This document shows positions 12,442-27,756 of a stretch of 64,000 nucleotides of DNA, piece after piece (the first letter of the stretch is position 1; each line of letters begins with the position of its first letter). Source of the DNA: an uncultured Verrucomicrobiae bacterium. Its GTDB lineage: Bacteria > Verrucomicrobiota > Verrucomicrobiia > Limisphaerales > JAFGQR01. A model generated the notes under the pieces. That model saw only the letters and a program-made list of their open reading frames with translations, had not been told where the DNA came from and made no database searches. The position numbers and the translations under genes are program-made. Where the stretch lies: positions 256,001 to 320,000 of the forward strand of contig CAWBHS010000072.1 of NCBI GenBank assembly GCA_963788655.1, read 5' to 3'.

Positions 12442-13071
12442 TCAAGCGCTTTTCAGCACGATCCGCGTCACGATGTTGCCGGCGTCGCGGCAGCGGTCGG
12501 TGACCTTTTCCACCAACTCGAACAAATCTTTCAGGAAGATGACCTTGGTGGCTTCGACGCGGCCGGAGTAAAGCTCCCGTAGTTGCTCCACGACAAACTT
12601 GTCGGCGTCGCCTTCGATCTTCTGGAGTTGGCCGTTCATCAGCCGGGCCTTTTCAAGGGTGATCCCTTGACGGAGTTGCCGGATCATTTCCATGAGCGTG
12701 CAAGTGGCCTTTTCCAGCATGTCCACCTGCGGTGAAATATCGATCGACTCAAACAATTGCGGGGCGAGCAAAAGCCGCTCGGCGATTTTCTCGATGGCCT
12801 TGGGGATTTTGTAGAGCAGATTGGACAAATCCTCAATGTCTTCCCGCTCCATGGTGGTGACGAAGTTGGTACAGAGCGCGTCGCAAATTTCGTAGGTGAT
12901 GGCCTTGTCCTTGCGCCGGGAGGCGATGAATTCGTCGAGCGTTTTGGCTTCCTTCGGGTTTTGCGAGAATTTCTTCAGGGACTGCACACTGTGACAGACT
13001 TCCTGAGCACTGGCCTCCAGCAGGTCGAAGAACCGGTCTTCTTTTCCCAATAATCGTTGTAGCGAAACCAT
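12442..13071 (-). CDS. DUF47 family PhoU-like phosphate transport regulator (copy 1, orphan)
   Basis: FFDLLE, FVT.MEREDI..L, IEGDAD, KDLFELVEKVTDRCRDAGN, IVLKS; paralogous to copies 2 and 3. Confidence 0.9.
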   Translation of the reverse strand: MVSLQRLLGKEDRFFDLLEASAQEVCHSVQSLKKFSQNPKEAKTLDEFIASRRKDKAITYEICDALCTNFVTTMEREDIEDLSNLLYKIPKAIEKIAERLLLAPQLFESIDISPQVDMLEKATCTLMEMIRQLRQGITLEKARLMNGQLQKIEGDADKFVVEQLRELYSGRVEATKVIFLKDLFELVEKVTDRCRDAGNIVTRIVLKSA

Positions 13072-13180
13072 AACCAGGGATACCTAGCATATCCGACCGT
13101 CCGTTCACCACAAAAAACTGTGGGGGTGTGGTTGGGCTCGCGCGGTGCATCCCCAGGTTGTCGGTGACTCGGCCTCATCC

Positions 13181-13250
13181 GCCGCGTGGGCGCACGCGGC
13201 CTACAAGGAGAACGGCACTTGCCTGTAGGCCCGGTGCCCTCACCGGGTGT
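13181..13250. repeat. REP-like palindrome pair, family H
   Basis: gccgcgtgggcgcacgcggcctaca ... tgtaggcccggtgccctcaccggg. Confidence 0.6.
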
Positions 13251-13494
13251 CCGCTAGCGCCGCCATTCCTGTCGATTCGGATGCCGCGCCAACGTTCGAG
13301 CCGACGGGAATTTCGGCGCGCCATGGATTTGAGGTCGCTCGCGTTGCATTACGATCGGCCAATTTGTTCGTCGCTCGCGATGAATTTCATGGCGGAGTCT
13401 TCACGCGATACTTCGCGAAGTTGTCATTGCCCGTGGGCCGTTCCGGGTTTAGCCTGCCGGCCTTGAACCAGAAAAAGCGAATGCCCAGCTCACT

Positions 13495-14010
13495 ATGAAA
13501 ACGAACCATCTCAAACAACGGACTGACCCGATCAAGCCTGCCGCCGATAATGAACTTTTAGTAAGTTCCATACCTGATTTTCGACGGGTCTTGGTCCCCA
13601 TTGATTTTTCGGAGATGTCAGTTGAGGCGCTGAAGTATGCCGTTCGGTTTGCGAAAAAATTCGGAGCGGAACTGACGCTTGTGTTCGTCCTCGAACCGGC
13701 GCCCTTCATGGTGGACATGGAAAACAATCCCCTCGCCTTATCCGACCAACAGGCCATTGTGAAAGCCCAGACCAGACTGGAACTATTGGCGTCCGCTCAA
13801 AACTCACCCGAGCCGATAAAGGTCCTCGTTCGCCAAGGCAAACCCTTCCGGGCAATTGTCGAGGTGGCTGAAGAATTGGACACCGAACTGATCATCCTGC
13901 CCACGCATGGTCACACGGGGCTGAGCCATGTCCTGTTAGGGAGTGTGGCGGAGAAAGTCGCGGAACATGCGCCGTGCGCCGTGCTGATCTTGCGGAAGCA
14001 CGACCAGTAA
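13495..14010 (+). CDS. Universal stress protein (UspA family)
   Basis: RVLVPIDFS, G.P...I...A, LIILPTHGHTGLSHVLLGSVAEKV..HAPCAVL. Confidence 0.93.
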   Translation: MKTNHLKQRTDPIKPAADNELLVSSIPDFRRVLVPIDFSEMSVEALKYAVRFAKKFGAELTLVFVLEPAPFMVDMENNPLALSDQQAIVKAQTRLELLASAQNSPEPIKVLVRQGKPFRAIVEVAEELDTELIILPTHGHTGLSHVLLGSVAEKVAEHAPCAVLILRKHDQ

Positions 14011-14096
14011 TCCGGACCAGGGCTGGGCCGGACTGGTGCCGGTGGGCGCCTTTCACTGGCCCGTGGAACCCGCTCCAGAGGTCGCGTCGCGTCGCC

Positions 14097-15167
14097 TTAC
14101 ACCAGTCCGCTGGCGTGGCAGAGCTTGAGCAGGACATAGCCGAGCAACGCGGTCACGGGCAGGGTAAGCACCCAGGCCCAGACGATGCGGCCCATGACAT
14201 GCCACTTGACGGCGTTGAGCCGTTTGGTGGCGCCGACGCCCATGATCGAGGTGGAAATGACGTGCGTAGTGGACAGGGGCATGCCCCACAGACTGGCCAC
14301 ATTGATCACTGCGGCCGCCGTTGTTTGCGCCGCAAATCCGTGAATCGGCTGAAGTCTTACCAACTTGGTGCCCATGGTGCGGATGATGCGCCAACCGCCC
14401 GTGGCGATGCCGGCGCCCATGACTGTCGCACAAGCGACTTTGACCCAAATTTCGATTTTAAAATCGGGAGTATGCATCCAGTTCATCCATCCCGGCAAAT
14501 GCTCCAACGCTCCGGACTTGGTGCCCGTCCATAGCGTCAGGGCGATGATCCCCATCGTCTTTTGGGCATCATTCAGTCCGTGGCAAAAACTCATCCAAGC
14601 GGCACTGGCCACCTGGGCCTTGCCGAAAACCCGGTTGAGCTTATGCGGGCGCCAACCGCGGAAAAGGGCGACCAGCAGTCCCATGAAGAGGAATCCGATC
14701 ACGGTTCCGCAAATCGGCGAGATAAGCATCGGCAGGATGACTTTGTGGAGCAGGCCCAGCGTATGGTGGGTCGCCGGGTCCACCACGGACCATTTAATGA
14801 CGTGCCAATCCCCGTTTACGGTGGCGACCGCCGCCCCGCACAATCCGCCAATGAGCGCGTGGCTGGAACTGGAGGGCAAGCCGAGCCACCAAGTGATCAG
14901 GTTCCAAATGATGGCCGCCAGCAGGGCCGCCATAATGGTGATCAGGGTGACGCTCCGTTCCTCGACGACGCCCACGGCAATCGTGGTGGCAACCGCTGTG
15001 CCGGCCAGCGCCCCGAGCAGGTCACACGTCGCCGCCATCGTCACGGCCTGGCGCGCGGTCAGTACTTTGGTGGCAACGCTGGTGGCAATGGCGTTGGCCG
15101 CATCGTGAAAACCGTTGACATATTCGAAGGCGAGCGCGACGAGAATCAAAAAGAGAATGAAGAGCAT
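14097..15167 (-). CDS. pit: Inorganic phosphate transporter, Pit family (copy 1)
   Basis: NGFHDAANAIAT, GLPSSSSHALIGG, HGLNDAQKTMG, GGWRIIRTMG, PLSTTH. Confidence 0.95.
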   Translation of the reverse strand: MLFILFLILVALAFEYVNGFHDAANAIATSVATKVLTARQAVTMAATCDLLGALAGTAVATTIAVGVVEERSVTLITIMAALLAAIIWNLITWWLGLPSSSSHALIGGLCGAAVATVNGDWHVIKWSVVDPATHHTLGLLHKVILPMLISPICGTVIGFLFMGLLVALFRGWRPHKLNRVFGKAQVASAAWMSFCHGLNDAQKTMGIIALTLWTGTKSGALEHLPGWMNWMHTPDFKIEIWVKVACATVMGAGIATGGWRIIRTMGTKLVRLQPIHGFAAQTTAAAVINVASLWGMPLSTTHVISTSIMGVGATKRLNAVKWHVMGRIVWAWVLTLPVTALLGYVLLKLCHASGLV

Positions 15168-15179
15168 GGCGCCGCGGGC

Positions 15180-15809
15180 TTACGAGTGCTTGAGCACGAT
15201 GTGGAAAACGATGTTGCCCACATCCCGGCAGCGATCAAATACCTTTTCCAGCAACTCGAGCAAATCCTTCATCACGATGACCTTCTTGCCCTCGTGTTCG
15301 CCGGTGTAAAGCTCTTGAAGGGAATCGAGCATCAGCTTGTCGGCTTCGCCTTCAATCGTCTGCAACCGGTCGTTTTGCAGTTTGACGGTTTCCAAGTTAA
15401 CTCCTTTGCGCAGTTCCTTGACCATGAGCACCACCACTTCGGCAGCCTGGTAAAGCAGTTTGACGTGCTGGGAGAGATCCACACCTTTCGTGAATTTGCC
15501 CGAAAGCAAGTAACGCTCGCCAAATTTTTCAGAGTTCTTGGGAATTTTGTAAAGCGCACTGGAAAGAGCTTCGATGTCCTCTCGCTCCAGAGGAGTGACA
15601 AACGTCTTGCACAGGTGCTCGGTCAACTCTTGCGAGAGTCGTTTTTCTTTGCGCCGGGCATTGACGAAGGATTCCAACGAATGATTCGCCTCCGGGGCAT
15701 TCAACATGGCCGTCAAACTCTCGATGGCGGCACGAGCTTCTTCCGCACTACCTTCCATTAACCGGAAGAATTTGTCGTCTTTGCTTAAAAGTCGTTGCAG
15801 GGAAAACAT
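15180..15809 (-). CDS. DUF47 family protein (copy 2)
   Basis: FVTPLEREDI, IEGEADK, LEKVFDRCRDVGN, IVLKHS; immediately upstream of pit. Confidence 0.92.
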   Translation of the reverse strand: MFSLQRLLSKDDKFFRLMEGSAEEARAAIESLTAMLNAPEANHSLESFVNARRKEKRLSQELTEHLCKTFVTPLEREDIEALSSALYKIPKNSEKFGERYLLSGKFTKGVDLSQHVKLLYQAAEVVVLMVKELRKGVNLETVKLQNDRLQTIEGEADKLMLDSLQELYTGEHEGKKVIVMKDLLELLEKVFDRCRDVGNIVFHIVLKHS

Positions 15810-15823
15810 AACTAGGGAGATTT

Positions 15824-15840
15824 TTTACATAATCGTAACA
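15824..15840 (-). promoter_or_regulatory. Pho-box-like 11-bp direct repeat
   Basis: Plus strand TTTACA-N5-GTAACA (minus strand TGTTAC-N5-TGTAAA); nearest base lies 15 nt from the A of the DUF47-2 ATG. Confidence 0.6.
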
Positions 15841-15983
15841 AAAGCGCACGTACTTTTTTTGAAACAGATTTCCAGCGATTCGGTGGTAGAGAGTCCCGCC
15901 GATCTGGCGACAGAAACCACCTTCGATATTGGCGTCGGGAATGACGATTGGCGGGATTGGGAAACTGACAGTCTCCCGACGGG

Positions 15984-17057
15984 TCAGTGTGCCCAGCCCA
16001 ACAGGAGCAGCACCCGCAGGCAAAGATAGCCCAACAATGCAGTGATGGGCAGCGTGAGCACCCAGGCCCAGACCATCCGGCCTACCACGCCCCATTTCAC
16101 TGCACTCAGACGCTTGGTGGCGCCCACGCCCATGATGGAGCCGGAGATCACGTGCGTTGTGGAGAGGGGCATGCCGAAGTGCGTGGCCGCCTCAATCACC
16201 GCCGCAGCGGTGGTTTGGGCGGCACAGCCATGGATGGTTTGCATCCGCACCACTTTATGTCCCATGGTCTTGATGATGCGCCAGCCGCCCGCCGCCGTGC
16301 CGGCCGCCATGGAGATGGCGCAGACCACTTTGATCCAAACCGCGACGTCAAACGTGGGCATTTTCAAAAAGGATAGCCAGGCCGGCAAATCATCAAGCAC
16401 TTTGGATTGGGTGGCCGTAAACAAGGTCAAGGTGATAATCCCCATGGTTTTTTGGGCATCGTTGGTTCCGTGACTGAAACTCATCCACGAAGAACTAAGC
16501 CATTGTAACTGACCGAACGTGCGGTTCACGCGATTCGGCTTGGCGCTGCGAAGAAAATACAAGAGCAGGCCCATGACCATGAAGCCGACCAACAAGCCCA
16601 CCACTGGCGCAATGAACATGGGCGCGATCACCTTGGGAATCAATCCGGACCACTGGTGTTTGGTTTCGTCAAAGAACGCCCACTTTATGACGCCAAGGTC
16701 GCCCTGGGCCGAGGCGAGCGCGGCGCCACACAGCCCGCCAATGAGCGCGTGGCTGGAACTGGAAGGCAATCCGATCCACCAAGTGAGCAAATTCCAGACA
16801 ATGGCACCAAGGAGCCCGCACAGGATGGTGTATTCACTGATGGAACTGGCGTCCACCAGATCCTTGCCAATCGTTTTGGCGACCGCGGTGAACGCCAGCG
16901 CGCCGAGGAGGTTGAAGCTGGAGGCCAGAATAATGGCCTGGCGCGGGGTCATCACTTTGGTGGAAACCGAAGTGGCGATGGCGTTGGCCGTGTCGTGAAA
17001 GCCGTTGATGTATTCAAACGTCAGCGCAATCAGGATTACAAAGAGTATCAGGATCAT
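15984..17057 (-). CDS. pit: Inorganic phosphate transporter, Pit family (copy 2)
   Basis: NGFHDTANAIAT, HGTNDAQKTMG, PLSTTH. Confidence 0.95.
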   Translation of the reverse strand: MILILFVILIALTFEYINGFHDTANAIATSVSTKVMTPRQAIILASSFNLLGALAFTAVAKTIGKDLVDASSISEYTILCGLLGAIVWNLLTWWIGLPSSSSHALIGGLCGAALASAQGDLGVIKWAFFDETKHQWSGLIPKVIAPMFIAPVVGLLVGFMVMGLLLYFLRSAKPNRVNRTFGQLQWLSSSWMSFSHGTNDAQKTMGIITLTLFTATQSKVLDDLPAWLSFLKMPTFDVAVWIKVVCAISMAAGTAAGGWRIIKTMGHKVVRMQTIHGCAAQTTAAAVIEAATHFGMPLSTTHVISGSIMGVGATKRLSAVKWGVVGRMVWAWVLTLPITALLGYLCLRVLLLLGWAH

Positions 17058-17084
17058 GGTTTTGTGTGCGTCGGTGCTGGCAAC

Positions 17085-18176
17085 CTATTTCCATCCGAGG
17101 GCGCGAAAGAGCAGCATGGCCAGGTAGGCGACCAAGGCCGATACCGGCAGGGTAAAGACCCAGGCCCAGATGATTTTTTCAACCACCCCCATGCGGAGCG
17201 CGCGAAAGCGCCGCGAAGCGCCGACGCCGGCCACGGCGGCTGTGATGGTGTGGGTGGTGGAAACCGGAAAGCCCCACGCGGCCGCGACAGTGAGGACCGT
17301 GGCGGCGGTGGTTTCGGCCGCAAAACCGTGAATGGGTTTCAAGTCGGTAATCCGCCGCCCCAGGGTTTGAATAATACGCCACCCGCCGGCCGCAGTGCCG
17401 GCTGCCAGCGCGACCGCGCAGGCGACCTTCAGCCACGCAGAAATGGCCAAAGCTTCTCCGGGCGGGGCTTCGGACATCTTGAGGAAATTGAGCCAGGCAG
17501 GAATGTGGTCAAAGGTGCCTGCCTTGGTCGCCGCCACCAAAGCCAACACCATCACCCCGAGGGTCTTTTGTGCATCGTTATGACCGTGCGCGAAGCCAAT
17601 GAATCCGCCGCTGAAGATCTGGCACTTGCCGAACACCCGGTCCACTTTCTCGACCCGCCAGTTCCGGAGCAACCAATAGAGGAGGCCGCTGGCAAGGAAC
17701 GCGCCAACCAAACCCAGCAGCGGCGAGACAAACATGGGAATGATCACTTTGAAAAGCAGGCCGTTTCCCTGCCACCAATGCAGCCCGCCGGAAGCGGTCC
17801 AGATGATTTCGTTCCAATTACTGTGGGCCGCCGCCAGCGCGGCACCGCACAGACCTCCAATAAGCGCATGACTGGAGCTCACGGGCAAGCCCCACCACCA
17901 AGTCATCAGATCCCACACAATGGCCCCGAGCAGGGCGCAAATAATGGTGTTGGTGGTGATGATGCTGGCGCCGACCAGGTCGTGTGCCATCGTCTCCGCC
18001 ACGGCCGTTCCGATCAAGGCGCCGACCAGGTTGGTGACGGTTGCCAGCACAATGGCCTGGCGGGGGGTTAGCGCCCGCGTGGCCACCACCGTGGCGATTG
18101 AGTTTGACGTGTCGTGGAAACCATTGATGTAAACGAATACCAAGGCCAGCAGAACGAGAATGATAATGGCGGTCAT
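17085..18176 (-). CDS. pit: Inorganic phosphate transporter, Pit family (copy 3, most divergent)
   Basis: NGFHDTSNSIAT, GLPVSSSHALIGG, HGHNDAQKTLG, PVSTTH. Confidence 0.95.
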   Translation of the reverse strand: MTAIIILVLLALVFVYINGFHDTSNSIATVVATRALTPRQAIVLATVTNLVGALIGTAVAETMAHDLVGASIITTNTIICALLGAIVWDLMTWWWGLPVSSSHALIGGLCGAALAAAHSNWNEIIWTASGGLHWWQGNGLLFKVIIPMFVSPLLGLVGAFLASGLLYWLLRNWRVEKVDRVFGKCQIFSGGFIGFAHGHNDAQKTLGVMVLALVAATKAGTFDHIPAWLNFLKMSEAPPGEALAISAWLKVACAVALAAGTAAGGWRIIQTLGRRITDLKPIHGFAAETTAATVLTVAAAWGFPVSTTHTITAAVAGVGASRRFRALRMGVVEKIIWAWVFTLPVSALVAYLAMLLFRALGWK

Positions 18177-18195
18177 GACCGGAAAGGATTGGCGG

Positions 18196-18825
18196 TTAAG
18201 AGTTCTTCAGCACGATTTGAAAAATGATGTTGCCGGCGTTGCGGCAGCGGTCGAATACCTTTTCCAATATCTCGTAAAGGTCCTTTAGGATGACCACCCT
18301 GACGATGTCCTCTTCCTCCCCGTAGAGATGCTCCAATTCTGCCACCAGCAGCTTGTCGGCCTCGCCTTCCACTTTTTGCAGAGCGTCATTGTTGGCCTTG
18401 GTGCGCGAGAGATTAGGGCCTTTTTTCAAATCCGTTACCATCCGGTAAACCGTTTCCTCGGCAGTTTCGAGCATCTTGACGTGTTGCGAGAAACTCACGT
18501 CGCGGATTTTGGGCGCACTTAACAAGTAGCGTTCGGCGAATTTTTTGGTGGTCTTGGGAATGCGGTATAAGGCCCGGGCCAGCATCTCAATATCCTCGCG
18601 ATCCAGCGGCGTCGCGTAGCTGTCGCACAGCAATTGGTCGATCTCGGCGCCGATTTGCTGCTCCTGGTCGCGGGCGTGCAAAAAATCCTGAAGCCCCGGG
18701 GTGTCTTCAGTGGCGTTCAGGAGTTCGCCGAGCGCTTTTATGCTGGCTCGTCCTGCGTCGGAACTGGCTTGCAGCAAGCTGAAAAATTTATCTTCTTTGC
18801 TGAATAGCTTCTTCAGGGAAAACAT
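18196..18825 (-). CDS. DUF47 family protein (copy 3)
   Basis: TPLDREDI, VEGEADK, LEKVFDRCRNAGN, IVLKNS. Confidence 0.92.
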   Translation of the reverse strand: MFSLKKLFSKEDKFFSLLQASSDAGRASIKALGELLNATEDTPGLQDFLHARDQEQQIGAEIDQLLCDSYATPLDREDIEMLARALYRIPKTTKKFAERYLLSAPKIRDVSFSQHVKMLETAEETVYRMVTDLKKGPNLSRTKANNDALQKVEGEADKLLVAELEHLYGEEEDIVRVVILKDLYEILEKVFDRCRNAGNIIFQIVLKNS

Positions 18826-18839
18826 ATCGGCCTTATTCT

Positions 18840-19045
18840 TTCACAAGATTGTTACAAAAATTCAAAATCAGATTTGTGACAAATAGGTTACGGTCAGATG
18901 GCGGTCGAGTTACAAGTCCTAAATTCATTGGGTTTTTACGATTCCGGAAAGAATTGATTGACGCTTGCAAACCTGCAAACCATTGTCCCAGTCATCAAAC
19001 AACACCGTTGCGAGAATGTTACAAAGCCGACATTTGGACGTAACA
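18840..19045. promoter_or_regulatory. Divergent promoter region with 11/22-bp-phased Pho-box-like hexamers
   Basis: TTCACA 18840 / GTTACA 18851; GTGACA 18876 / GTTACG 18887 / GTTACA 18909; GTTACA 19018 / GTAACA 19040; AT-rich region between DUF47-3 and phoU. Confidence 0.65.
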
Positions 19046-19067
19046 AATAACTGCGAAAGAAAGGTGC

Positions 19068-20168
19068 GTGAACTCAATGCCAACTCATTTTGAGATAACA
19101 TTACAGCGCGACACGGATCGGATTCGCCAGAAACTCCTGGCCATGTGCGGCCTTTGCGAACAGGCCATTCAGACGTGCGTCAAAGCCCTGGCCGAGCGAA
19201 ACCGGCAGGTCGCCTACGCGGTCATCATTCGCGACCAATACATCGACGCGATGGAGAAAGAGGTGGATCGGCTCTGTCTCGAATTCCTCGTCCGTCAACA
19301 GCCCGTGGCCGCTTCGCTGCGCTTCGCGTACAGCACCATCAAGGTCAATCTCGAACTCGAGCGCATCGGCGACTATACCGAAAGCATTGCCCGGCAGACG
19401 TTGAAATTGATCCCGATGGATGTGCAGATTCCCACCGAGCGTTACCAGGAGATTGCCCAGTTGTCGCTGGCCATGTTGCACGACGCGATCAAGGCCTTCG
19501 TGGATCGCGATGAAGAACTGGCCCGGAAGACCATTCAGACCGAAGAATCGGTGGACCAGCTCAAGAGCAAGCTCAACAAGGACTTGGTCGGTTATTTCCA
19601 GGATCAGAAAATCCCCTTCGAGGCGCTCAATCCGCTGATGATGATCACCCGCCACTTGGAACGGATTTCCGACCAGGCGCGTAACATCAGCCTGGAAGCG
19701 CTGTATGTGGGCACCGGTGAGGATGCCAAACATCAGGGGGCGGACGTGGTAAGGGTATTGTTCGTCGATGAACACAATTCCTGCCGCAGTCAAATGGCCG
19801 AGGCCATCGCGAACGGATTGAACCAACCGCGGTTTGTCTTCGCCAGCGCCGGTCTGGAGCCGAAGCCCATCGAGCCGGCGACGAAGGAGTTCATGAAATC
19901 CAAGGGCTTCGAAGTGTCGCACCTGGCCTCCAAGGCGGTCAGTCAGGTGCCCAACCTCGACCATTTTCAAGTGGTGGTGGCTCTGGCCAAAGCTGCCCGG
20001 TCGGCGTTTCCCGCCAATGTGCGCAACTTGGTTTTCCTGGACTGGGCCATCCAGGATCCTTCCGCGATGGAAGGCAGTCCGGAGCAGGTCAAAACCGCCT
20101 ACGAAGAAACCTTCCGCTTTATCGAAGAACACCTCAAAGATTTGATTGGAGCCATTTCGGGACAATAA
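19068..20168 (+). CDS. phoU: PhoU fused to a C-terminal ArsC/LMW-PTP-like domain lacking the catalytic cysteine
   Basis: PhoU motifs D..ID.ME.E.D, QQPVA..LR, ELERIGDY, HLERISDQARNI; C-terminal VLFVDEHNSCRSQMAEA, SAGLEP, WAIQDP. Confidence 0.92.
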   Translation: MNSMPTHFEITLQRDTDRIRQKLLAMCGLCEQAIQTCVKALAERNRQVAYAVIIRDQYIDAMEKEVDRLCLEFLVRQQPVAASLRFAYSTIKVNLELERIGDYTESIARQTLKLIPMDVQIPTERYQEIAQLSLAMLHDAIKAFVDRDEELARKTIQTEESVDQLKSKLNKDLVGYFQDQKIPFEALNPLMMITRHLERISDQARNISLEALYVGTGEDAKHQGADVVRVLFVDEHNSCRSQMAEAIANGLNQPRFVFASAGLEPKPIEPATKEFMKSKGFEVSHLASKAVSQVPNLDHFQVVVALAKAARSAFPANVRNLVFLDWAIQDPSAMEGSPEQVKTAYEETFRFIEEHLKDLIGAISGQ

Positions 20169-20191: not shown

Positions 20192-21115
20192 ATGAGCAAA
20201 AATACAACCATACGATGGAGCCTCCGGCTGTGCGCCGCGATGGCAGCAACCGCATGCCTGATCCAAACCGGCTGCAAACCTAAAGAAGGGGGCGAGGGCG
20301 GCACCGGCAAAACAACGATTCAAGTCAAAGGCTCGGATACGATGGTAAACCTGGCACAGTCCTGGGCGGAAGCGTACAAGAAGGTCAATCCCGACGTGGA
20401 GGTGGAAGTCTCTGGCGGTGGCAGCGGCGTGGGCATCGCGGCGCTGATCAAGGGAGGGGTGGACATTGCGAACGCCAGTCGCGACATGAAGGCCCCCGAA
20501 ATTGAGCAGGCCAAACAGAACACCGGGAAGACGCCCAAGGAAACCATTGTCGGCTACGACGGGCTGGGCATTTACGTCAACAAAGATAATCCGCTGGACG
20601 CAATCAGCGAAGAGAAACTGGCCCAGATTTACGAGGAAGGCGGCAAGATCACCAAGTGGTCGCAATTGGGCATCAAAGTGCCTGGTTGTGACAGCGATGA
20701 AATTGTCGTGGTCAGCCGCCAGTCCAGCTCGGGCACCTACGAATTCCTGCGGGAACACGTGCTTAAGAACAAGGACTACCGGATGGGCACAAAAGACATG
20801 AATGGTTCCAAGGAAGTGGTCGAACTGGTGGGCAGCACGCCTTGCGCGATCGGTTACAGCGGCATGGGCTACGCCACCCCGGCGGTCAAAATGCTGAAGA
20901 TCTCGGCGACGGAAGGCGCCCCGGCGGTCGCGCCATCGGTGGAAAATACCATGAGCAAGAAATACCCCATCGCCCGTTCCCTCAACTGCTACACGCTCGG
21001 CGAACCGCAAGGCGAAGTGAAGAAATACCTGGATTGGATCAACTCCGATGCCGGGCAGAAGATTGTGGTTGATACCGGTTACGTTCCGCTGAAACCGGAG
21101 GACCGTACCAAGTAA
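20192..21115 (+). CDS. pstS: Phosphate ABC transporter substrate-binding lipoprotein
   Basis: Lipobox-like TGC, KGSDTM, GGGSGVGI, DIANASR, RQSSSGTYE, AIGYSG.GY, YPIAR.L. Confidence 0.95.
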   Translation: MSKNTTIRWSLRLCAAMAATACLIQTGCKPKEGGEGGTGKTTIQVKGSDTMVNLAQSWAEAYKKVNPDVEVEVSGGGSGVGIAALIKGGVDIANASRDMKAPEIEQAKQNTGKTPKETIVGYDGLGIYVNKDNPLDAISEEKLAQIYEEGGKITKWSQLGIKVPGCDSDEIVVVSRQSSSGTYEFLREHVLKNKDYRMGTKDMNGSKEVVELVGSTPCAIGYSGMGYATPAVKMLKISATEGAPAVAPSVENTMSKKYPIARSLNCYTLGEPQGEVKKYLDWINSDAGQKIVVDTGYVPLKPEDRTK

Positions 21116-21255: not shown

Positions 21256-22200
21256 ATGAGCGATCCCATCATCCCACCCACTGAACCTGTGTTTGTGGTC
21301 CGGAAGGCCGTCCGTCCGGCCTGGGCCGTTTATGGCGAGTACGCGTTGCAGGCGACCATTTACCTGTGTGGCATTAGCGCCATTATCTTCGTGCTCAGCA
21401 TCTTCTTTTTCGTTTTCAAAGAAGCCGTGCCAGTGTTTGGGGATCCGCATTTCAGTGTCAGCCAATTCCTCTTTACGACCAAGTGGTATCCCACCTCAGC
21501 CGTCAATGTGCGTTACGGGGTGCTCGCCATGATCGTGGGCACGTTCAGCGTTACGGGTCTGGCCATGCTCATTGCGGTACCGTTCGGGCTTGGGGCGGCG
21601 ATTTATGTGTCCGAGTTTTGCGGTCCGAAGATGAAAGAAACCCTGAAGATTGTCATCGAGCTGTTGGCGGCCATCCCGAGTGTGGTCTGGGGATTCATTG
21701 GCTTGACGGTTATCAGTCGCTTGATTGTGACGTACACCGGCGCGCAGGTCGGCGTCAACATTCTCAATGGCGGCGTCATCCTGGCCCTGATGAGTGTGCC
21801 CATCATCGTCTCGATCAGCGAAGACGCTTTGAAGGCCGTGCCGGATTCTTACCGCGAGGCCGGTGTGGCCCTGGGCGCCACCCGGTGGCAACTGATTTGG
21901 CGGGTCTTGTTGCCGGCCGCCAAAACGGGCTTATTGGCGGCGGTGCTCCTGGGCGTCGGCCGGGCGGTTGGGGAAACCATGGCCGTGCTGATGGCCACCG
22001 GACACGCGGTGCATATTCCCCACAGCGTGCTGGACTCGGTGCGCACGCTCACCGCCAACATTGCCGCCGAATTGGGGGAAGCCCCGGCCGGCTCACCGCA
22101 TTATCGGGTGCTGTTCATGATCGGGGTACTGCTGTTCTCAATCACCTTCGTGGTGAACCTGACCGCCGACCTGATCGTGCGGGGAATTCGCAAGAAATGA
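21256..22200 (+). CDS. pstC: Phosphate ABC transporter permease
   Basis: ELLAAIPSVVWG, EDAL.AVP..YRE...ALGATRWQ, GRAVGETMAVLM. Confidence 0.95.
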   Translation: MSDPIIPPTEPVFVVRKAVRPAWAVYGEYALQATIYLCGISAIIFVLSIFFFVFKEAVPVFGDPHFSVSQFLFTTKWYPTSAVNVRYGVLAMIVGTFSVTGLAMLIAVPFGLGAAIYVSEFCGPKMKETLKIVIELLAAIPSVVWGFIGLTVISRLIVTYTGAQVGVNILNGGVILALMSVPIIVSISEDALKAVPDSYREAGVALGATRWQLIWRVLLPAAKTGLLAAVLLGVGRAVGETMAVLMATGHAVHIPHSVLDSVRTLTANIAAELGEAPAGSPHYRVLFMIGVLLFSITFVVNLTADLIVRGIRKK

Positions 22201-22219: not shown

Positions 22220-23380
22220 ATGTTTACCTTGTTAAAAACATATTGGACCTGGGTCGCCCTGGAAGTTGTCATGTCCGCCGTGGGGGCCTTGGTGGCGGGT
22301 TGGGTGGCGCGCAACCGCGGGCGCAGTGAACTGGGATGGGGATTGCTGGTGCCCATTGGCTCGCTGTTTGGTTCGTTTGTTTTCCTTCTTTTCTTTCCTT
22401 GGCCCGCACTACTGCTCTTGTTTTCCCCGGTCGTGTTTGGTCTCGTCTTGTTGGTCTTGGGGGCATTGCCCCGCCTGCCCGTGGACGCTCAAACCAAGTT
22501 TGGGGAAAATTATTTTGTCCGGTTGCGCTCCCATTACGAGTTGGTGGCCAAGTGGATTTTCTTCGGCATGGCCGCGGCCATGATTGTCCCGCTGCTGACC
22601 ATTCTGACTTACCTGGTCGTCAAAGCCATGCCCTCGTTGAGTCTGTCCTTCCTCATCGACGTGCCCAAGAAAGGCATGACCGCCGGGGGGATCTGGCCGG
22701 CGTTTATTGGCACCATTTACTTGGTCGTCATCTCGCTGGCGGTGGCGGCGCCCATTGGGGTGTTGGCGGCGGTTTATCTGAATGAATACGCCAAGGACAA
22801 CTGGTTCAACCGCATCATCAACCTGGCGGTCATTAATCTGGCCGGGGTGCCCAGCATTGTGCATGCGCTTTTCGGTATGGGGGCGTTTGTCTATGCGGCC
22901 CATTTGGGCGCGTCGGTTCTGGCCGCCTCGTTGACGCTCGCCATCATGACGCTGCCGGTGATTATCGCCAGCACCCGCGAAGCGCTGGCCAGTGTGCCGC
23001 AAACGTTTCGCGAAGCCTGCTGGAACGTTGGCGCGACCCGTTGGCAGACCATCAAAGCGGTGGTCCTGCCCAATTCCATCAGCGGGATTCTGACGGGCGT
23101 CATTTTGCAAGTGAGCCGGGCGGCCGGCGAGACGGCACCCATCTTGTTCACCGGCGCAGTGTTTTACAAAGCGGTCCAACGCGGTGACCTGTTTCCCTAC
23201 TACCTGAACGATCAGTGCATGGCGTTGTCCATGCATCTTTACACGTTGGCGACCCAGGTTCCCAATGTCCCTGAGTCCATTCCGTTTGCCACCGCGGTGG
23301 TGTTGCTCGGCTCGGTGCTGTTGGTCAACGCGGCGGCCATCTCCCTGCGCGCCTATATGCGCTCCCGCAAGAAATGGTAA
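22220..23380 (+). CDS. pstA: Phosphate ABC transporter permease with ~90-aa extra N-terminal membrane module
   Basis: GGIWPAFIGT, YLNEYA, LAGVPSIV, RAAGETAP; extension containing VARNRGRSELGWG. Confidence 0.93.
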   Translation: MFTLLKTYWTWVALEVVMSAVGALVAGWVARNRGRSELGWGLLVPIGSLFGSFVFLLFFPWPALLLLFSPVVFGLVLLVLGALPRLPVDAQTKFGENYFVRLRSHYELVAKWIFFGMAAAMIVPLLTILTYLVVKAMPSLSLSFLIDVPKKGMTAGGIWPAFIGTIYLVVISLAVAAPIGVLAAVYLNEYAKDNWFNRIINLAVINLAGVPSIVHALFGMGAFVYAAHLGASVLAASLTLAIMTLPVIIASTREALASVPQTFREACWNVGATRWQTIKAVVLPNSISGILTGVILQVSRAAGETAPILFTGAVFYKAVQRGDLFPYYLNDQCMALSMHLYTLATQVPNVPESIPFATAVVLLGSVLLVNAAAISLRAYMRSRKKW

Positions 23381-24159
23381 ACCCCACGTCCATGCCTCAC
23401 TCCGACAACTTGCAGGTGGAAGTCCGGGATCTCCGGCTGGCTTATGGCCATAAAGAGGTGATTCACGGCATTTCCTTCGACATATATCGCAACGAAATCC
23501 TGGGCGTGATTGGGCCGGCGCAGTCGGGGAAGACGTCCCTGTTGCGGTGCATCAATCGCACCATCGACTTCACGCCGGACGCGCACGTCTCCGGCACCAT
23601 CCGGGTGGATGGCGAAGATGTGCGTCGCACGAAAAACATTTATCGTCTGCGCCGCAAAATTGGCATGGTCGCGCCTTTGCCCGTGGGCTTGCCGATCAGC
23701 ATTTATGACAACGTGGCCTTTGCTCCGCGTGCCGCCGGCCTGACGCGGCGGAGCGAACTGGATGACATCGTCGAACAGTGCTTGCAGCAGGCGGCGCTGT
23801 GGGATGAGGTCAAGGACCGCCTGAACAGTCTGGGCACCAAGCTCTCGGGGGGACAGCAGCAACGGTTGACCATTGCCCGGGCGCTGTCGCATCAACCCGA
23901 AATTCTGTGCCTGGATGAGTTCTCAATTGCCATCGATCCGGTGACTACCATGCGCATCGAGGACGTGCTGAAGGTGCTGCGCCAGGACATGACCGTCATC
24001 CTCGTCACCAATCTCACCCAGCAGGCGCGGCGATTGGCCGACCGGACCATGTTTCTGTGGAACGGCAAAATCGTCGAAATCGATACCAACGAAGTCATTT
24101 TCTCAGACACGCCGAAAGATCGACAGACTTACGAATACGTGAACGGCATATTCGGATGA
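23374..24159 (+). CDS. pstB: Phosphate ABC ATPase PstB1 (intact signature; degenerate Q-loop, D-loop and H-switch); alternative start 23392
   Basis: GPAQSGKTS, AALWDEVKDRL, LSGGQQQRL.IARAL, LDEFSIAIDP, VTNLTQQA. Confidence 0.9.
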   Translation: MVNPTSMPHSDNLQVEVRDLRLAYGHKEVIHGISFDIYRNEILGVIGPAQSGKTSLLRCINRTIDFTPDAHVSGTIRVDGEDVRRTKNIYRLRRKIGMVAPLPVGLPISIYDNVAFAPRAAGLTRRSELDDIVEQCLQQAALWDEVKDRLNSLGTKLSGGQQQRLTIARALSHQPEILCLDEFSIAIDPVTTMRIEDVLKVLRQDMTVILVTNLTQQARRLADRTMFLWNGKIVEIDTNEVIFSDTPKDRQTYEYVNGIFG

Positions 24160-24193: not shown

Positions 24194-24979
24194 ATGAGCG
24201 ATCCCGTCAATCACAGCCTGGCCTGCATCGCCACCCGGAACCTGAACCTGTGGTACGCCAAGTTTCAGGCCTTGAACAACATTCACGTCGATATCAAGCA
24301 AGGGATCATCACCTCACTCATCGGCCCCTCGGGCTGTGGCAAGACCACCCTGTTGCGTTGCTTCAACCGGGTCAACGAGCGCTATGGCTACGTGACCACG
24401 ACCGGCGAGATCAAGCTGCTGGGCAAGAACATTTACGATCCGGACGTATCCCTGATCGAGCTGCGCAAGTCGGTGGGCATGGTCTTTCAACGGCCCAATC
24501 CGCTGCCGATCTCGGTCTATGAAAATGTGGTGTTTGGTTTGCGTATCCACAACTCCCGGCGCGACCTGGGCAAATCCATGCTCGACGACGCAGTCGAGAA
24601 GGCGCTCACGGAAGTGGGCTTATGGAACGATCTCAAGGACCGCCTCCAGACCAAGGCCACCGGATTGTTGCTGGAGCAACAACAAAAGCTTTGCATCGCC
24701 CGGTTGCTGCCGTTGAAACCGGAGATCATCCTGATGGACGAACCCTGTTCCGCCCTCGACGTGGAAGGTACCCGCGCCATCGAGGAACTGATGTTTGAGA
24801 TGAAAGGCCGCTACACCATTGTCATCGTCACTCACAACATGGCCCAAGCCCGTCGGGCCAGTGACGAGTGCATTTTCATGTTGATGGGCGAACTCATGGA
24901 GCACCGGCGCACCGAAGATTTATTCCTCAATCCCCAGAATCCCAAAACCGCCGAATACATCGAAGGCCGTTACGGTTGA
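24194..24979 (+). CDS. pstB: Phosphate ABC ATPase PstB2 (intact Walker A/B, Q-loop, H-switch; degenerate signature)
   Basis: GPSGCGKTT, GMVFQRPNP, LLLEQQQK, MDEPCSALD, VTHNMAQA, YIEGRYG. Confidence 0.92.
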   Translation: MSDPVNHSLACIATRNLNLWYAKFQALNNIHVDIKQGIITSLIGPSGCGKTTLLRCFNRVNERYGYVTTTGEIKLLGKNIYDPDVSLIELRKSVGMVFQRPNPLPISVYENVVFGLRIHNSRRDLGKSMLDDAVEKALTEVGLWNDLKDRLQTKATGLLLEQQQKLCIARLLPLKPEIILMDEPCSALDVEGTRAIEELMFEMKGRYTIVIVTHNMAQARRASDECIFMLMGELMEHRRTEDLFLNPQNPKTAEYIEGRYG

Positions 24980-26010: not shown

Positions 26011-26412
26011 GCGACAAGCTACATCGTCTAAGAGCGCGGCGATAGCTGGGGAGCGCCAAACGCCCCAGTTGTGCCTTTCCCCGTTGTTCGGCAGCGATTG
26101 AAGAAGCACCCGCAAAGCCCCGTTTCCGATAGGTTCAATTCTTGCTAAAAACCAAGCGACGGCTCGATTCGTGGGGAAGCACCCAGGCCATCCGGTCAGG
26201 GAAATAGTTGCTAAATCTTTGCGCCCGAATGCCGTTAGTACAAATGGGCTTACTGGGAAATTGAAGTCGGAGCCTGGCACGCGGCAGATGTTGCCCCGGC
26301 GGCGGGAAATCCGTTTTTGCTCAAACTAGCTGGGCAACTGGCATGGAATGAATTTGGCAATCAAAAGTTGTTTTGCGCGCGCCCATCCTTGGCAGTCCGG
26401 GCGCACGAGTCT

Positions 26413-27756
26413 ATGAAGAACCGTATTTTGGTGGTGGATGATCAGGCGGAACTCCGCCAATTGTTGAGATTGTTGCTCGAACAGGACCAATACGTGGTGA
26501 CTGAAGCGGGCGATTCCATCGCGCTTAAGGCGGCATTTGACGGTCCGGAACCGGATGTGGTGTTACTGGATTTACGGTTACCCGATGCCGACGGCCTGGA
26601 TTTGCTACCGGTGCTCAAGCGGCAATGGCCCGAAGCCGAGGTGATCGTGCTGACCGGACATGCCACTTACGAAGCCGCCGTGGAGGCCATTAAACGCGGG
26701 GCGTTTCACTTTCAGGAAAAACCCATCGACAACAAGGCGCTGTTGAACCTCGTCGAGAAGGCCCTCGAGCGCAAACAACTCACCGAACAGGCCAGTTCGC
26801 TCCGACAAGCGCTGACCACCATGAGTGGCGGCTCCTCGCCCATCTTTCAAAGCTCCTCCATGAAACAGGTTCTGCGCACCATCGAGCGCGTCGGACCCAG
26901 CGACGTCTCCATTCTCATCACCGGCGAAAGTGGCACCGGCAAGGAAGTGGTGGCCGATCTGATTCATGCGTTAAGCGAGCGCAACAAAGGGCCGTGTATC
27001 AAGATCAATTGCGCGGCGTTGCCGCGGGAGTTGATCGAGAGCGAATTGTTCGGCTCCGTCAAAGGCGCGTTTACCGGCGCCCAGGGTGACCGCGAAGGGC
27101 TGTTTCGGCTGGCGGAAAGCGGGACCTTGCTGCTGGATGAAATCTCCGAAATGCCCGTGGACACCCAAAGCAAGCTGTTGCGGGTGTTGCAGGAAAAAGA
27201 AGTCCGGCCCGTCGGTGGGCGCAGCAGCTACAAAACCGATTGCCGCATTTTGGCCGCCACCAATCGCCGCGTCGAGGAGGCCATCAAGGAAGGCAAATTA
27301 CGCGAAGATTTGTTCTACCGCATCAGTGCCATCACCGTCTATCTGCCCCCCCTGCGCGAACGCAGGGAAGACATCCTGCCGCTGGCTCGCACCTTCTTGA
27401 AGCGGTTTGCCTCACAAGCCAATCGCGTCCTGGCGGATTTTAGTCCCGCGGCGGTGGATCGGCTGCGGAAATTTGATTGGCCCGGCAACGTACGTCAGTT
27501 GCAGAACGAAGTGCAGCGCGCCGTGCTGATGGCCGAAGGCAAAATGGTGGACGTGGACGATCTCTCGATCAGTGATCCCGACGTGGTGGCCATCAATGGC
27601 GAATCCAATCTGACCCTCATGGAAGCCATGGAACGGAACAAAATCATCGAGGTGTTGCAGGAAACCGGGGGTAACAAACTGGCCACTGCCAAACGCCTCG
27701 GGATTGGCCGGCAGACCTTGTACAACAAGATCAAGACCTACGCCATTGCCGCCTGA
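26413..27756 (+). CDS. Sigma-54-dependent response regulator (NtrC/AtoC family)
   Basis: REC (ILVVDD, LLDLRLP), GESGTGKE, ESELFG, GAFTGA, WPGNVRQL, Fis-type HTH. Confidence 0.95.
   Translation: MKNRILVVDDQAELRQLLRLLLEQDQYVVTEAGDSIALKAAFDGPEPDVVLLDLRLPDADGLDLLPVLKRQWPEAEVIVLTGHATYEAAVEAIKRGAFHFQEKPIDNKALLNLVEKALERKQLTEQASSLRQALTTMSGGSSPIFQSSSMKQVLRTIERVGPSDVSILITGESGTGKEVVADLIHALSERNKGPCIKINCAALPRELIESELFGSVKGAFTGAQGDREGLFRLAESGTLLLDEISEMPVDTQSKLLRVLQEKEVRPVGGRSSYKTDCRILAATNRRVEEAIKEGKLREDLFYRISAITVYLPPLRERREDILPLARTFLKRFASQANRVLADFSPAAVDRLRKFDWPGNVRQLQNEVQRAVLMAEGKMVDVDDLSISDPDVVAINGESNLTLMEAMERNKIIEVLQETGGNKLATAKRLGIGRQTLYNKIKTYAIAA

Follow-up and report, generated by a model that had tools for sequence, protein, structure and literature searches.

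A PhoU protein carrying an ArsC-derived domain with Asp in place of the nucleophilic Cys, encoded at the head of a Pst operon with two non-equivalent PstB ATPases

In this study, we examined a gene at positions 19068 to 20168 of a 64,000-nucleotide stretch of DNA (the window) from an uncultured Verrucomicrobiae bacterium (contig CAWBHS010000072.1, assembly GCA_963788655.1). The gene encodes PhoU joined in frame to a domain derived from the arsenate reductase ArsC, in which Asp takes the place of the nucleophilic Cys. It opens an operon that continues on the same strand with pstS, pstC, pstA and two dissimilar pstB genes, here pstB1* and pstB2*. The features of the gene and its product are as follows.

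19068..20168, plus strand: phoU::arsC* fusion gene, 366 amino acids from GTG 19068; the likely start, ATG 19077, gives 363 amino acids
19086..19715, plus strand: PhoU part, residues ~7-216; six long helices, two PhoU repeats, conserved E98..D102 and E198..D202
19749..20156, plus strand: ArsC-derived domain of low-molecular-weight (LMW) phosphatase fold, residues ~228-363; Pfam LMWPc, ArsC models below cut-off, best solved relatives 2L17, 8P5N and 1JL3; judged catalytically dead
19767..19790, plus strand: relic P-loop D234-E-H-N-S-C-R-S241, with Asp at the family's nucleophilic Cys position
20055..20060, plus strand: D330-P331, the DP general acid of the family, present in 176 of 177 close relatives

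The frame is open throughout, with 366 codons counted from the GTG. The true start is probably ATG 19077 rather than GTG 19068, since the copy of the protein in the database (P0001) has 363 residues and homologues start with MPTH or MATH; the string AAAGGTG precedes this ATG. Pfam matches PhoU (PF01895) in two stretches (5.6e-36, 123.2 bits) and LMWPc (PF01451) at residues 230-359 (2e-12, 47.9 bits against a gathering score of 23.2), the only other Pfam domain on the protein being a weak PhoU_div match. Among NCBIfam models, the full-length PhoU equivalog TIGR02135 is passed (159 bits, cut-off 130.25) and the enterobacterial PhoU model NF008332 is not reached (112.6 against 342), and the arsenate reductase equivalogs are far from their cut-offs, both for the thioredoxin type (TIGR02691, 60.8 against 174.3) and for the glutaredoxin type (TIGR02689, 58.6 against 157.6). 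An AlphaFold2 model of the fusion, built from an alignment of 147 rows, has a predicted local distance difference test score (pLDDT) of 96.2 and a predicted template modelling score (pTM) of 0.80, and consists of six long helices, running from H7-43 to H184-216 in the PhoU part, followed by a beta-alpha domain. In Foldseek comparisons the PhoU part superimposes on the solved PhoU structures 1T72 and 4Q25 with a template modelling score by target (TMt) of 0.94-0.95 and a root mean square deviation of 1.2-1.5, and the C-terminal domain matches the ArsC structures 8P6M, 1JL3 and 1LK0 with TMt 0.85-0.89. The six helices form two three-helix bundles, as in PhoU. The protein belongs to the PhoU family on four counts (profile model, repeats, fold and gene context), and its C-terminal domain falls in the LMWPc fold family, a membership of fold that implies no enzyme class. 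The original prediction, made from the letters alone, of a PhoU joined to a domain of the ArsC/LMW protein tyrosine phosphatase (PTP) type is borne out.

The closest solved relative of the C-terminal domain by sequence is the glutaredoxin-coupled ArsC of Synechocystis (2L17, 4e-14). In the alignment, VLFVDEHNSCRSQMAE of the fusion pairs with VMFVCKRNSCRSQMAE of 2L17, and VVALAKAARSAFP pairs with VISLCGCGVNLPP of 2L17. D234 lies opposite the nucleophilic Cys both of 2L17 and of the canonical ArsC that the same genome encodes, and the P-loop string VLFVDEHNSCRSQMAEA is present as first quoted. The codon of D234 is GAT (19767-19769), two base changes away from TGT or TGC. C239 (TGC, 19782-19784), R240 (CGC, 19785-19787), W326 (TGG, 20043-20045) and D330-P331 (GAT CCT, 20055-20060) were read from the DNA. 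The redox segment VVVALAKAARSAFP pairs with VISLCGCGVNLPP of 2L17 and with VVTVCGHANEHCP of the genome's own ArsC, and within it LAKAARS stands opposite LCGCGVN and VCGHANEHC. On both alignments, both redox cysteines are Ala in the fusion, and N237, R240, S241 and D330-P331 are all retained; the predicted loss of the redox cysteines and the predicted retention of the N, R, S and DP residues are thus both found in the window protein. Since the nucleophilic Cys is Asp and the redox cysteines are lost, the sequence excludes arsenate reduction by the family's mechanism for this domain, and the protein lies outside the arsenate reductase equivalogs because nucleophile, redox pair and score all fall short. 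Source records call relatives of the fusion plain 'PhoU', 'arsenate reductase' or 'protein-tyrosine-phosphatase'; the latter two names are wrong as functions for fusion proteins.

The exchange of Cys for Asp is shared by the close relatives. Restricting a search to the C-terminal domain among fusion-length proteins gave 285 matches, of which 120 were listed; both Pfam domains are present in 117 of these, and a strict P-loop pattern returned Asp in 107 and Gly in 3 and was not fitted in 10 (two further strict-pattern matches were spurious and fell in the PhoU part). Homologues combining PhoU and LMWPc, for which a hidden Markov model search had been proposed, were found in 472 genomes in a scan of one genome per species, and the best 80 loci (52-71% identity) were kept. 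These 80 come from metagenome-assembled genomes labelled Verrucomicrobiota (most), Myxococcota, Acidobacteriota, Fibrobacterota, Lentisphaerae and Methylomirabilota, with a few implausible labels. Three loci (L027, L054 and L081) in genomes labelled Bifidobacterium or Bifidobacteriaceae carry a Verrucomicrobia-like operon at 54-60% identity, and their labels look wrong. Asp occupies the nucleophile position in 63 of the 68 of these best 80 loci in which it could be parsed.

Pooling the window protein, the close matches of 340-410 residues and 69 parsable loci of the 80 gave 177 distinct sequences of the window's own clade. In this pool Asp234 is found in 168 (Gly in the other 9), Asn237 in 164, Cys239 in 174, Arg240 in 154, Ser241 in 169, Asp330 and Pro331 in 176 each and Trp326 in all 177, and the mean frequency of the top residue over the domain is 0.69. 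The claim that the P-loop Cys had become Asp is upheld by these counts, and the argument that a codon two substitutions from Cys is unlikely to be a miscall can be put more strongly, as Asp in the relatives excludes one. The number of independent changes among the 177 is at least 14 for Arg240, 6 for Asp234, 3 for Cys239 and 1 for Asp330. Where Arg240 is replaced, by L, Q, C, P, N, V, K or A, DEHN.C.SQMAE and DP are unchanged. Other pocket residues are changed in 12 of 23 Arg-less sequences as against 35 of 154 Arg-bearing ones, a difference that is not significant in an independent-pairs test with only 8 supported pairs.

To cover the wider family, we searched 1.84 billion 50%-cluster representatives with HMMER, which gave 158 matches below 1e-30; 150 were listed, 101 of them at least 330 residues long. 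Dropping seven with frameshifted tails or another architecture (P0146, P0170, P0185, P0187, P0222, P0264 and P0265) left 94 distant representatives. At the nucleophile position these have Asp in 72, Cys in 7, Ser in 6, Glu in 4, Gly in 2 and another residue in 3, so that homologous fusions do not mostly keep Cys, whether close (Asp in 168 of 177) or distant (Asp in 72 of the 94 listed, Cys in 7). The P-loop Arg is found in only 16 of the 94, Leu taking its place in 37 and Ala in 12; DP is kept in 21, and all 94 have Trp326. Most often, in 59 of the 94, Asp is present and both Arg and DP are missing. Conservation of D-x5-R, by which the original prediction was to be judged, therefore holds for one of its two ends: Asp persists, and Arg, present in 154 of the 177 close sequences, has changed there at least 14 times and is kept in 16 of the 94 distant ones listed.

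Trees were built from the PhoU columns only (FastTree; IQ-TREE quick), so that the columns of the trait itself were excluded. All degenerate fusions form a single clade, with support of 98 in FastTree and 99 by the Shimodaira-Hasegawa-like approximate likelihood ratio test (SH-aLRT) in IQ-TREE. Its sister (support 94) is P0159, a fusion with complete C-x5-R, DP and C-x7-C, and the remaining complete fusions are intermixed with stand-alone PhoU. These others may represent separate fusion events, to judge from the trees. The direction of change is likely from a complete to a degenerate site, with an outgroup that is not monophyletic. P0159, labelled Deltaproteobacteria, and P0236, P0238, P0202 and P0207 join PhoU to an apparently complete ArsC; they have the same domain order as the window protein but keep C-x5-R, DP and the downstream Cys pair, and may on their residues be true PhoU-linked arsenate reductases.

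Within the degenerate clade there are two large groups. One (support 100; clade B) is almost throughout without Arg and DP, and the other, which includes the window protein, mostly keeps both. At metagenome loci of clade B, Asp is found in 68 of 70 parsed P-loops and Arg in 2 of 70, and Pfam recognises LMWPc in only 21 of 54 members of this group. The AlphaFold2 model of one such member without Arg and DP (P0193) has a pLDDT of 94.1 and a pTM of 0.88, shows the same order of elements and matches ArsC structures with TMt up to 0.86; in the models, then, the domain stays folded and joined to PhoU even as the pocket degenerates. Because Arg and DP are lost in the wider family while fold, fusion and linkage to pst genes persist, an oxyanion pocket cannot be the family's conserved function. 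The fusion family itself is real and widespread.

The genes that follow the fusion are these.

20192..21115, plus strand: pstS, phosphate-binding protein; Pfam PBP_like_2, and TIGR02136 at 229 bits, above cut-off
21256..22200, plus strand: pstC permease
22220..23380, plus strand: pstA permease, by profile match, with ~110 extra N-terminal residues outside the model match
23374..24159, plus strand: pstB1*; Walker A/B and LSGGQ kept, Q-loop Gln replaced by Pro (MVAP), H-loop His replaced by Asn (VTNL)
24194..24979, plus strand: pstB2*; Walker A/B, Q-loop and H-loop kept, signature LLLEQ instead of LSGGQ

Both ATPases fall below the PstB equivalog cut-off of 343.2 (275.6 for PstB1*, 326.7 for PstB2*), which the PstB of the genome's other pst operon passes at 406.4. 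They are 37% identical to each other and their motif losses are complementary. In dimers of ATP-binding cassette (ABC) proteins, the signature of one subunit completes the ATP site of the other, and heterodimeric ABC exporters are known in which complementary motif losses leave one dead ATP site. Because the losses in PstB1* and PstB2* are complementary in this sense, the pair is predicted to have one consensus and one degenerate ATP site, and the two proteins would on their motifs form a heterodimer. As a separate observation on the operon, PstA is 386 amino acids long and its model match begins at residue 113, the ~110 N-terminal residues before it being rich in hydrophobic stretches.

This arrangement is conserved. 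Among the best 80 of the 472 loci, pstS immediately follows the fusion in 79, the contig ending in the remaining one, two pstB genes lie downstream in 62, and PitA or DUF47 lies upstream on the opposite strand in 12. Both PstB proteins could be read in 56 loci, and in every one of these the Pro/Asn pattern goes with LSGG in the first protein and FQ goes with L[QLS]LE in the second, whose H-loop is HN in 51 and was unparsed in 5. For clade B, neighbourhoods were taken from metagenome contigs, 80 being kept of 435 relatives, and the gene order is pstS-fusion-pstC-pstA-pstB1-pstB2. There, pstS immediately precedes the fusion in 62 loci and pstC immediately follows it in 57; all the downstream genes are present in 25, contig ends cutting off the rest. 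The 40 ATPase-like open reading frames parsed in these loci comprise 15 of PstB1 type, 19 of PstB2 type, 6 unrelated and no canonical PstB.

The same association is seen across genomes. We sampled 80 further genomes from the order to which the window belongs, one for each genus; 24 have the C-terminal domain (E<=1e-25) and 27, including all 24, a PstB1-type protein (59-84% identity). Of the remaining three of the 27, two have a full-length but more divergent fusion on the same contig, and in the third none was detected at 1e-10, so that in this sample of kin the fusion is present in 26 of 27 genomes with PstB1* and in 0 of 53 without. Judged by this sample, some 30% of the genera in the order have the fusion. 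Of 150 other genomes sampled evenly over the phylum, only 1 has the C-terminal domain (E<=1e-25). The module is patchy within the phylum yet present in several phyla, like an accessory operon. The fusion is of old origin, evolves under purifying selection and passes on as a unit with pstS, pstC, pstA and the PstB1*/PstB2* pair.

In E. coli, PhoU is found in the cytoplasm, bound to the PstB ATPase, where it restrains transport or reports on it. The reading of the C-terminal domain that we favour, and to which we give roughly even chances, is that of a pseudoenzyme module that adapts PhoU to an asymmetric Pst pump. The fusion would then be a PhoU paralogue that serves specifically the importer whose genes follow it, with ordinary PhoU in the first 220 residues and, in the last 140, a descendant of a thioredoxin/glutaredoxin-coupled arsenate reductase. 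The latter would be rigidly attached and non-catalytic, and would serve as a docking element or allosteric brake element toward the asymmetric ATPase. Asp234 may retain the negative charge of the thiolate at the start of helix alpha-1 and hold the shape of the loop without its redox sensitivity, which would account for Asp outliving both Arg and DP.

Several points weigh against this proposal. Docking of the domain to Pst proteins is something we infer, as are the charge role of Asp and the packing between the domains. A complex prediction of the C-terminal domain (222-366, with alignment) together with PstB1 and PstB2 gave a median of 0.31 against a mark of 0.32, and one control with PstB1 replaced scored 0.62, which speaks neither for docking nor against it. 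Co-occurrence among related genomes overstates independence. Further, the pocket is conserved above the domain mean of 69% in the window's clade (D234 95%, C239 98%, S241 95%, N237 93%, D330 and P331 99%, R240 87%). A mere scaffold does not obviously need such conservation, and on these frequencies a ligand or partner at the pocket is a live possibility.

The alternative that survives best, and which we hold as tentative, is that of the original prediction, namely that the domain is a non-catalytic oxyanion sensor: the relic P-loop, with its backbone amides, N237, R240 and S241 and with D330 above, would bind cytoplasmic phosphate or arsenate and throttle the Pst pump via PhoU. The P-loop and DP are complete in the window protein, the pocket residues lie above the domain mean in the 177 close sequences, and the ancestor was an arsenate-binding enzyme of which complete PhoU-linked forms still exist. 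A classical PTP site with Asp for Cys is described in PMC3172300 (citing Romsicki 2003) as still binding substrate while deficient in catalysis, and PMC11389368 states that phosphate sensing by PhoU, PstSCAB and PhoR is unexplained. Against this, Arg has changed at least 14 times in the close clade with DEHN.C.SQMAE and DP unchanged, and it is absent from 78 of the 94 distant representatives listed and from 68 of 70 clade-B loci although operon and fold persist there. Loss of Arg is also not significantly followed by loss of other pocket residues in the independent-pairs test. The sensor idea thus keeps its footing in the window's clade, where the pocket is complete and conserved above average, but not across the family, where Arg and DP are lost. 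An extension of it, in which phosphate or arsenate held in the relic P-loop acts through PhoU on the degenerate site of PstB1*/PstB2* as a ligand-gated brake, we consider rather unlikely.

The original prediction also offered an Asp-nucleophile phosphatase or phosphoacceptor. Such a domain, whether a phosphatase or a regulatory site that accepts a phosphoryl group, would use Asp234 via an acyl-phosphate; we regard this as improbable and found no support for it. Asp is nearly invariant at the nucleophile position, and the general-acid DP and Arg are present in the window protein; yet Asp is equally kept in the 59 of 94 listed representatives that lack both Arg and DP, which fits a structural role of Asp, not catalysis. 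A CX5R site with Asp for Cys is reported as catalytically deficient (PMC3172300), and the protein has no receiver-domain or haloacid dehalogenase (HAD) signature, its Pfam domains being PhoU, LMWPc and the weak PhoU_div match.

Metal binding is reported for PhoU proteins, and the loop D234-x-H236-x-x-C239, which brings Asp, His and Cys together with C239 98% conserved in the close clade, could have been turned into a metal site. We think this very improbable, as the close clade shows at least 21 changes of H236 and, among the 94 distant representatives listed, His holds this position in 13 and C239 is present in 29. H222 was considered as a residue completing the pocket or as a fourth metal ligand and was rejected, KH/RH being the normal C-terminus of PhoU, found also in the stand-alone PhoU copies of the genome. 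The chance that the gene is an artefact, whether through an error of base calling, a chimera in the assembly or decay into a pseudogene, is negligible. The genome is a draft in 115 contigs and 86% complete, but the reading frame is uninterrupted, the structural model has high confidence, two base changes separate the Asp codon from Cys and the intact architecture recurs in 472 species genomes and hundreds of metagenome proteins.

The surroundings of the operon in the window also concern phosphate.

18826..19076, no strand: divergent intergenic region between DUF47-pitA and the fusion, a putative promoter region, with the densest GT[ATG]ACA cluster of the window (sites at 18851, 18876, 18909, 19018 and 19040)
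12442..18825, minus strand: low-affinity uptake genes, three DUF47/PhoU_div and three PitA (PHO4)
18196-18825, 15180-15809 and 12442-13071, minus strand: DUF47/PhoU_div, by profile matches
17085-18176, 15984-17057 and 14097-15167, minus strand: PitA (PHO4), by profile matches

The five GT[ATG]ACA sites of the promoter region account for 7 of the 44 matches to this pattern in the 64 kb, as two also match the opposite strand; spacings of 25, 33 and 22 bp occur among them, and two of the window's three TGTWACA matches lie in the same region. In 69 upstream regions, CGTAACA, TGTCACA and TTGTCAC are the most recurrent 7-mers 5' of the fusion. The GT[ATG]ACA sites, which we take to resemble the Pho box of E. 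coli, may be candidate PhoB-type boxes. A scan for promoters and terminators around the fusion gene gave none above shuffle expectation, and Rfam had no match at gathering scores over the whole window. The row of Pit and DUF47 genes forms a phosphate-uptake island with the Pst genes. The DUF47 genes at 18196-18825 and 15180-15809 are directly upstream of PitA genes, and no transporter gene follows the one at 12442-13071, an orphan. Among the Pit genes lies one for a universal stress protein (13495-14010, plus strand), and a sigma-54 type response regulator with receiver, AAA and Fis helix-turn-helix parts (26317-27756, plus strand) lies 1.3 kb past pstB2.

The genome has three PhoU genes, namely the fusion, a plain PhoU on contig C99 and a phoU on contig C63. 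The former contig carries a canonical porin-pstS-pstC-pstA-pstB-phoU cluster (L096, 744-7357, plus strand) with its plain PhoU last, and on the latter (L099) phoU lies beside the genome's best PhoB-like (253 bits) and PhoR-like (321.6 bits) genes, both just below the proteobacterial cut-offs. A third contig (C39) holds arsR, the canonical ArsC (CTGNSCRS, C-x7-C, DDP) and an ArsM-like methyltransferase. Because the genome has separate pstSCAB-phoU, phoU-phoB-phoR and arsR-arsC-arsM loci, the fusion replaces neither a signalling PhoU nor an arsenate reductase; it adds a third PhoU, which goes with a second Pst system. The three paralogues apparently have divided roles. Elsewhere in the genome (contig C49; L097, 3910-5346, minus strand), a canonical LMW-PTP (CTGNICRS) stands in frame with an RpiB-like part and a serine hydroxymethyltransferase-like start, whose tail then seems to leave the frame; either a fusion or a frameshift in the draft may explain this.

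Set against known systems, the fusion shares with canonical PhoU (E. coli; P. aeruginosa, 4Q25; A. aeolicus, 1T72) the two repeats, the six-helix fold, TIGR02135 and a place in a pst operon, but differs in its extra ArsC-derived domain of 140 residues, in standing first in its operon where PhoU stands last, and in its asymmetric PstB pair. With ArsC (S. aureus pI258, B. subtilis, Synechocystis 2L17, D. indicus ArsC2 8P5N) it shares the fold, xLFxxxxNSCRSQMAE, SAG, the W before DP and the DP acid, and it differs in Asp for the nucleophilic Cys, Ala for both redox cysteines and scores below the cut-offs. The D2 domain of the receptor tyrosine phosphatase PTP99A of Drosophila likewise has a CX5R site with a natural Asp for Cys and is kept as a regulatory partner, and such a pseudophosphatase domain is said to bind substrate without turnover (PMC3172300). 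That domain has the classical PTP fold, is eukaryotic and is fused to an active phosphatase, whereas the domain described here has the LMW-PTP fold and sits on PhoU, so the likeness is one of analogy only. Tandem pstB1/pstB2 genes of E. faecalis and other Firmicutes are likewise two adjacent, non-equivalent PstB genes in a pst locus; the E. faecalis pair is ~60% identical (PMC12096839), compared with 37% and complementary motif losses here. We found no published description of a fusion of PhoU to a dead ArsC in the literature searched, which leaves out most subscription journals; PMC3610870 and PMC10734472 are unrelated to it.

Altogether, the family is a natural experiment in which PhoU has been joined to a domain from an oxyanion-binding enzyme and genetically locked to a Pst pump with one predicted degenerate ATP site. 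Its members form a graded series in which the pocket decays: complete ArsC, then Asp together with Arg and DP, then Asp by itself. Comparison along this series would show whether PhoU gains ligand binding, docking or mere stability. The family would also show the role of a degenerate site in a type I ABC importer, and it matters for annotation, as the enzyme names on fusion records are misleading. Should a ligand-gated brake prove true, this PhoU would read internal phosphate directly and throttle its own pump, and would provide a separable example of the long-sought sensing step of the Pst/PhoU system.

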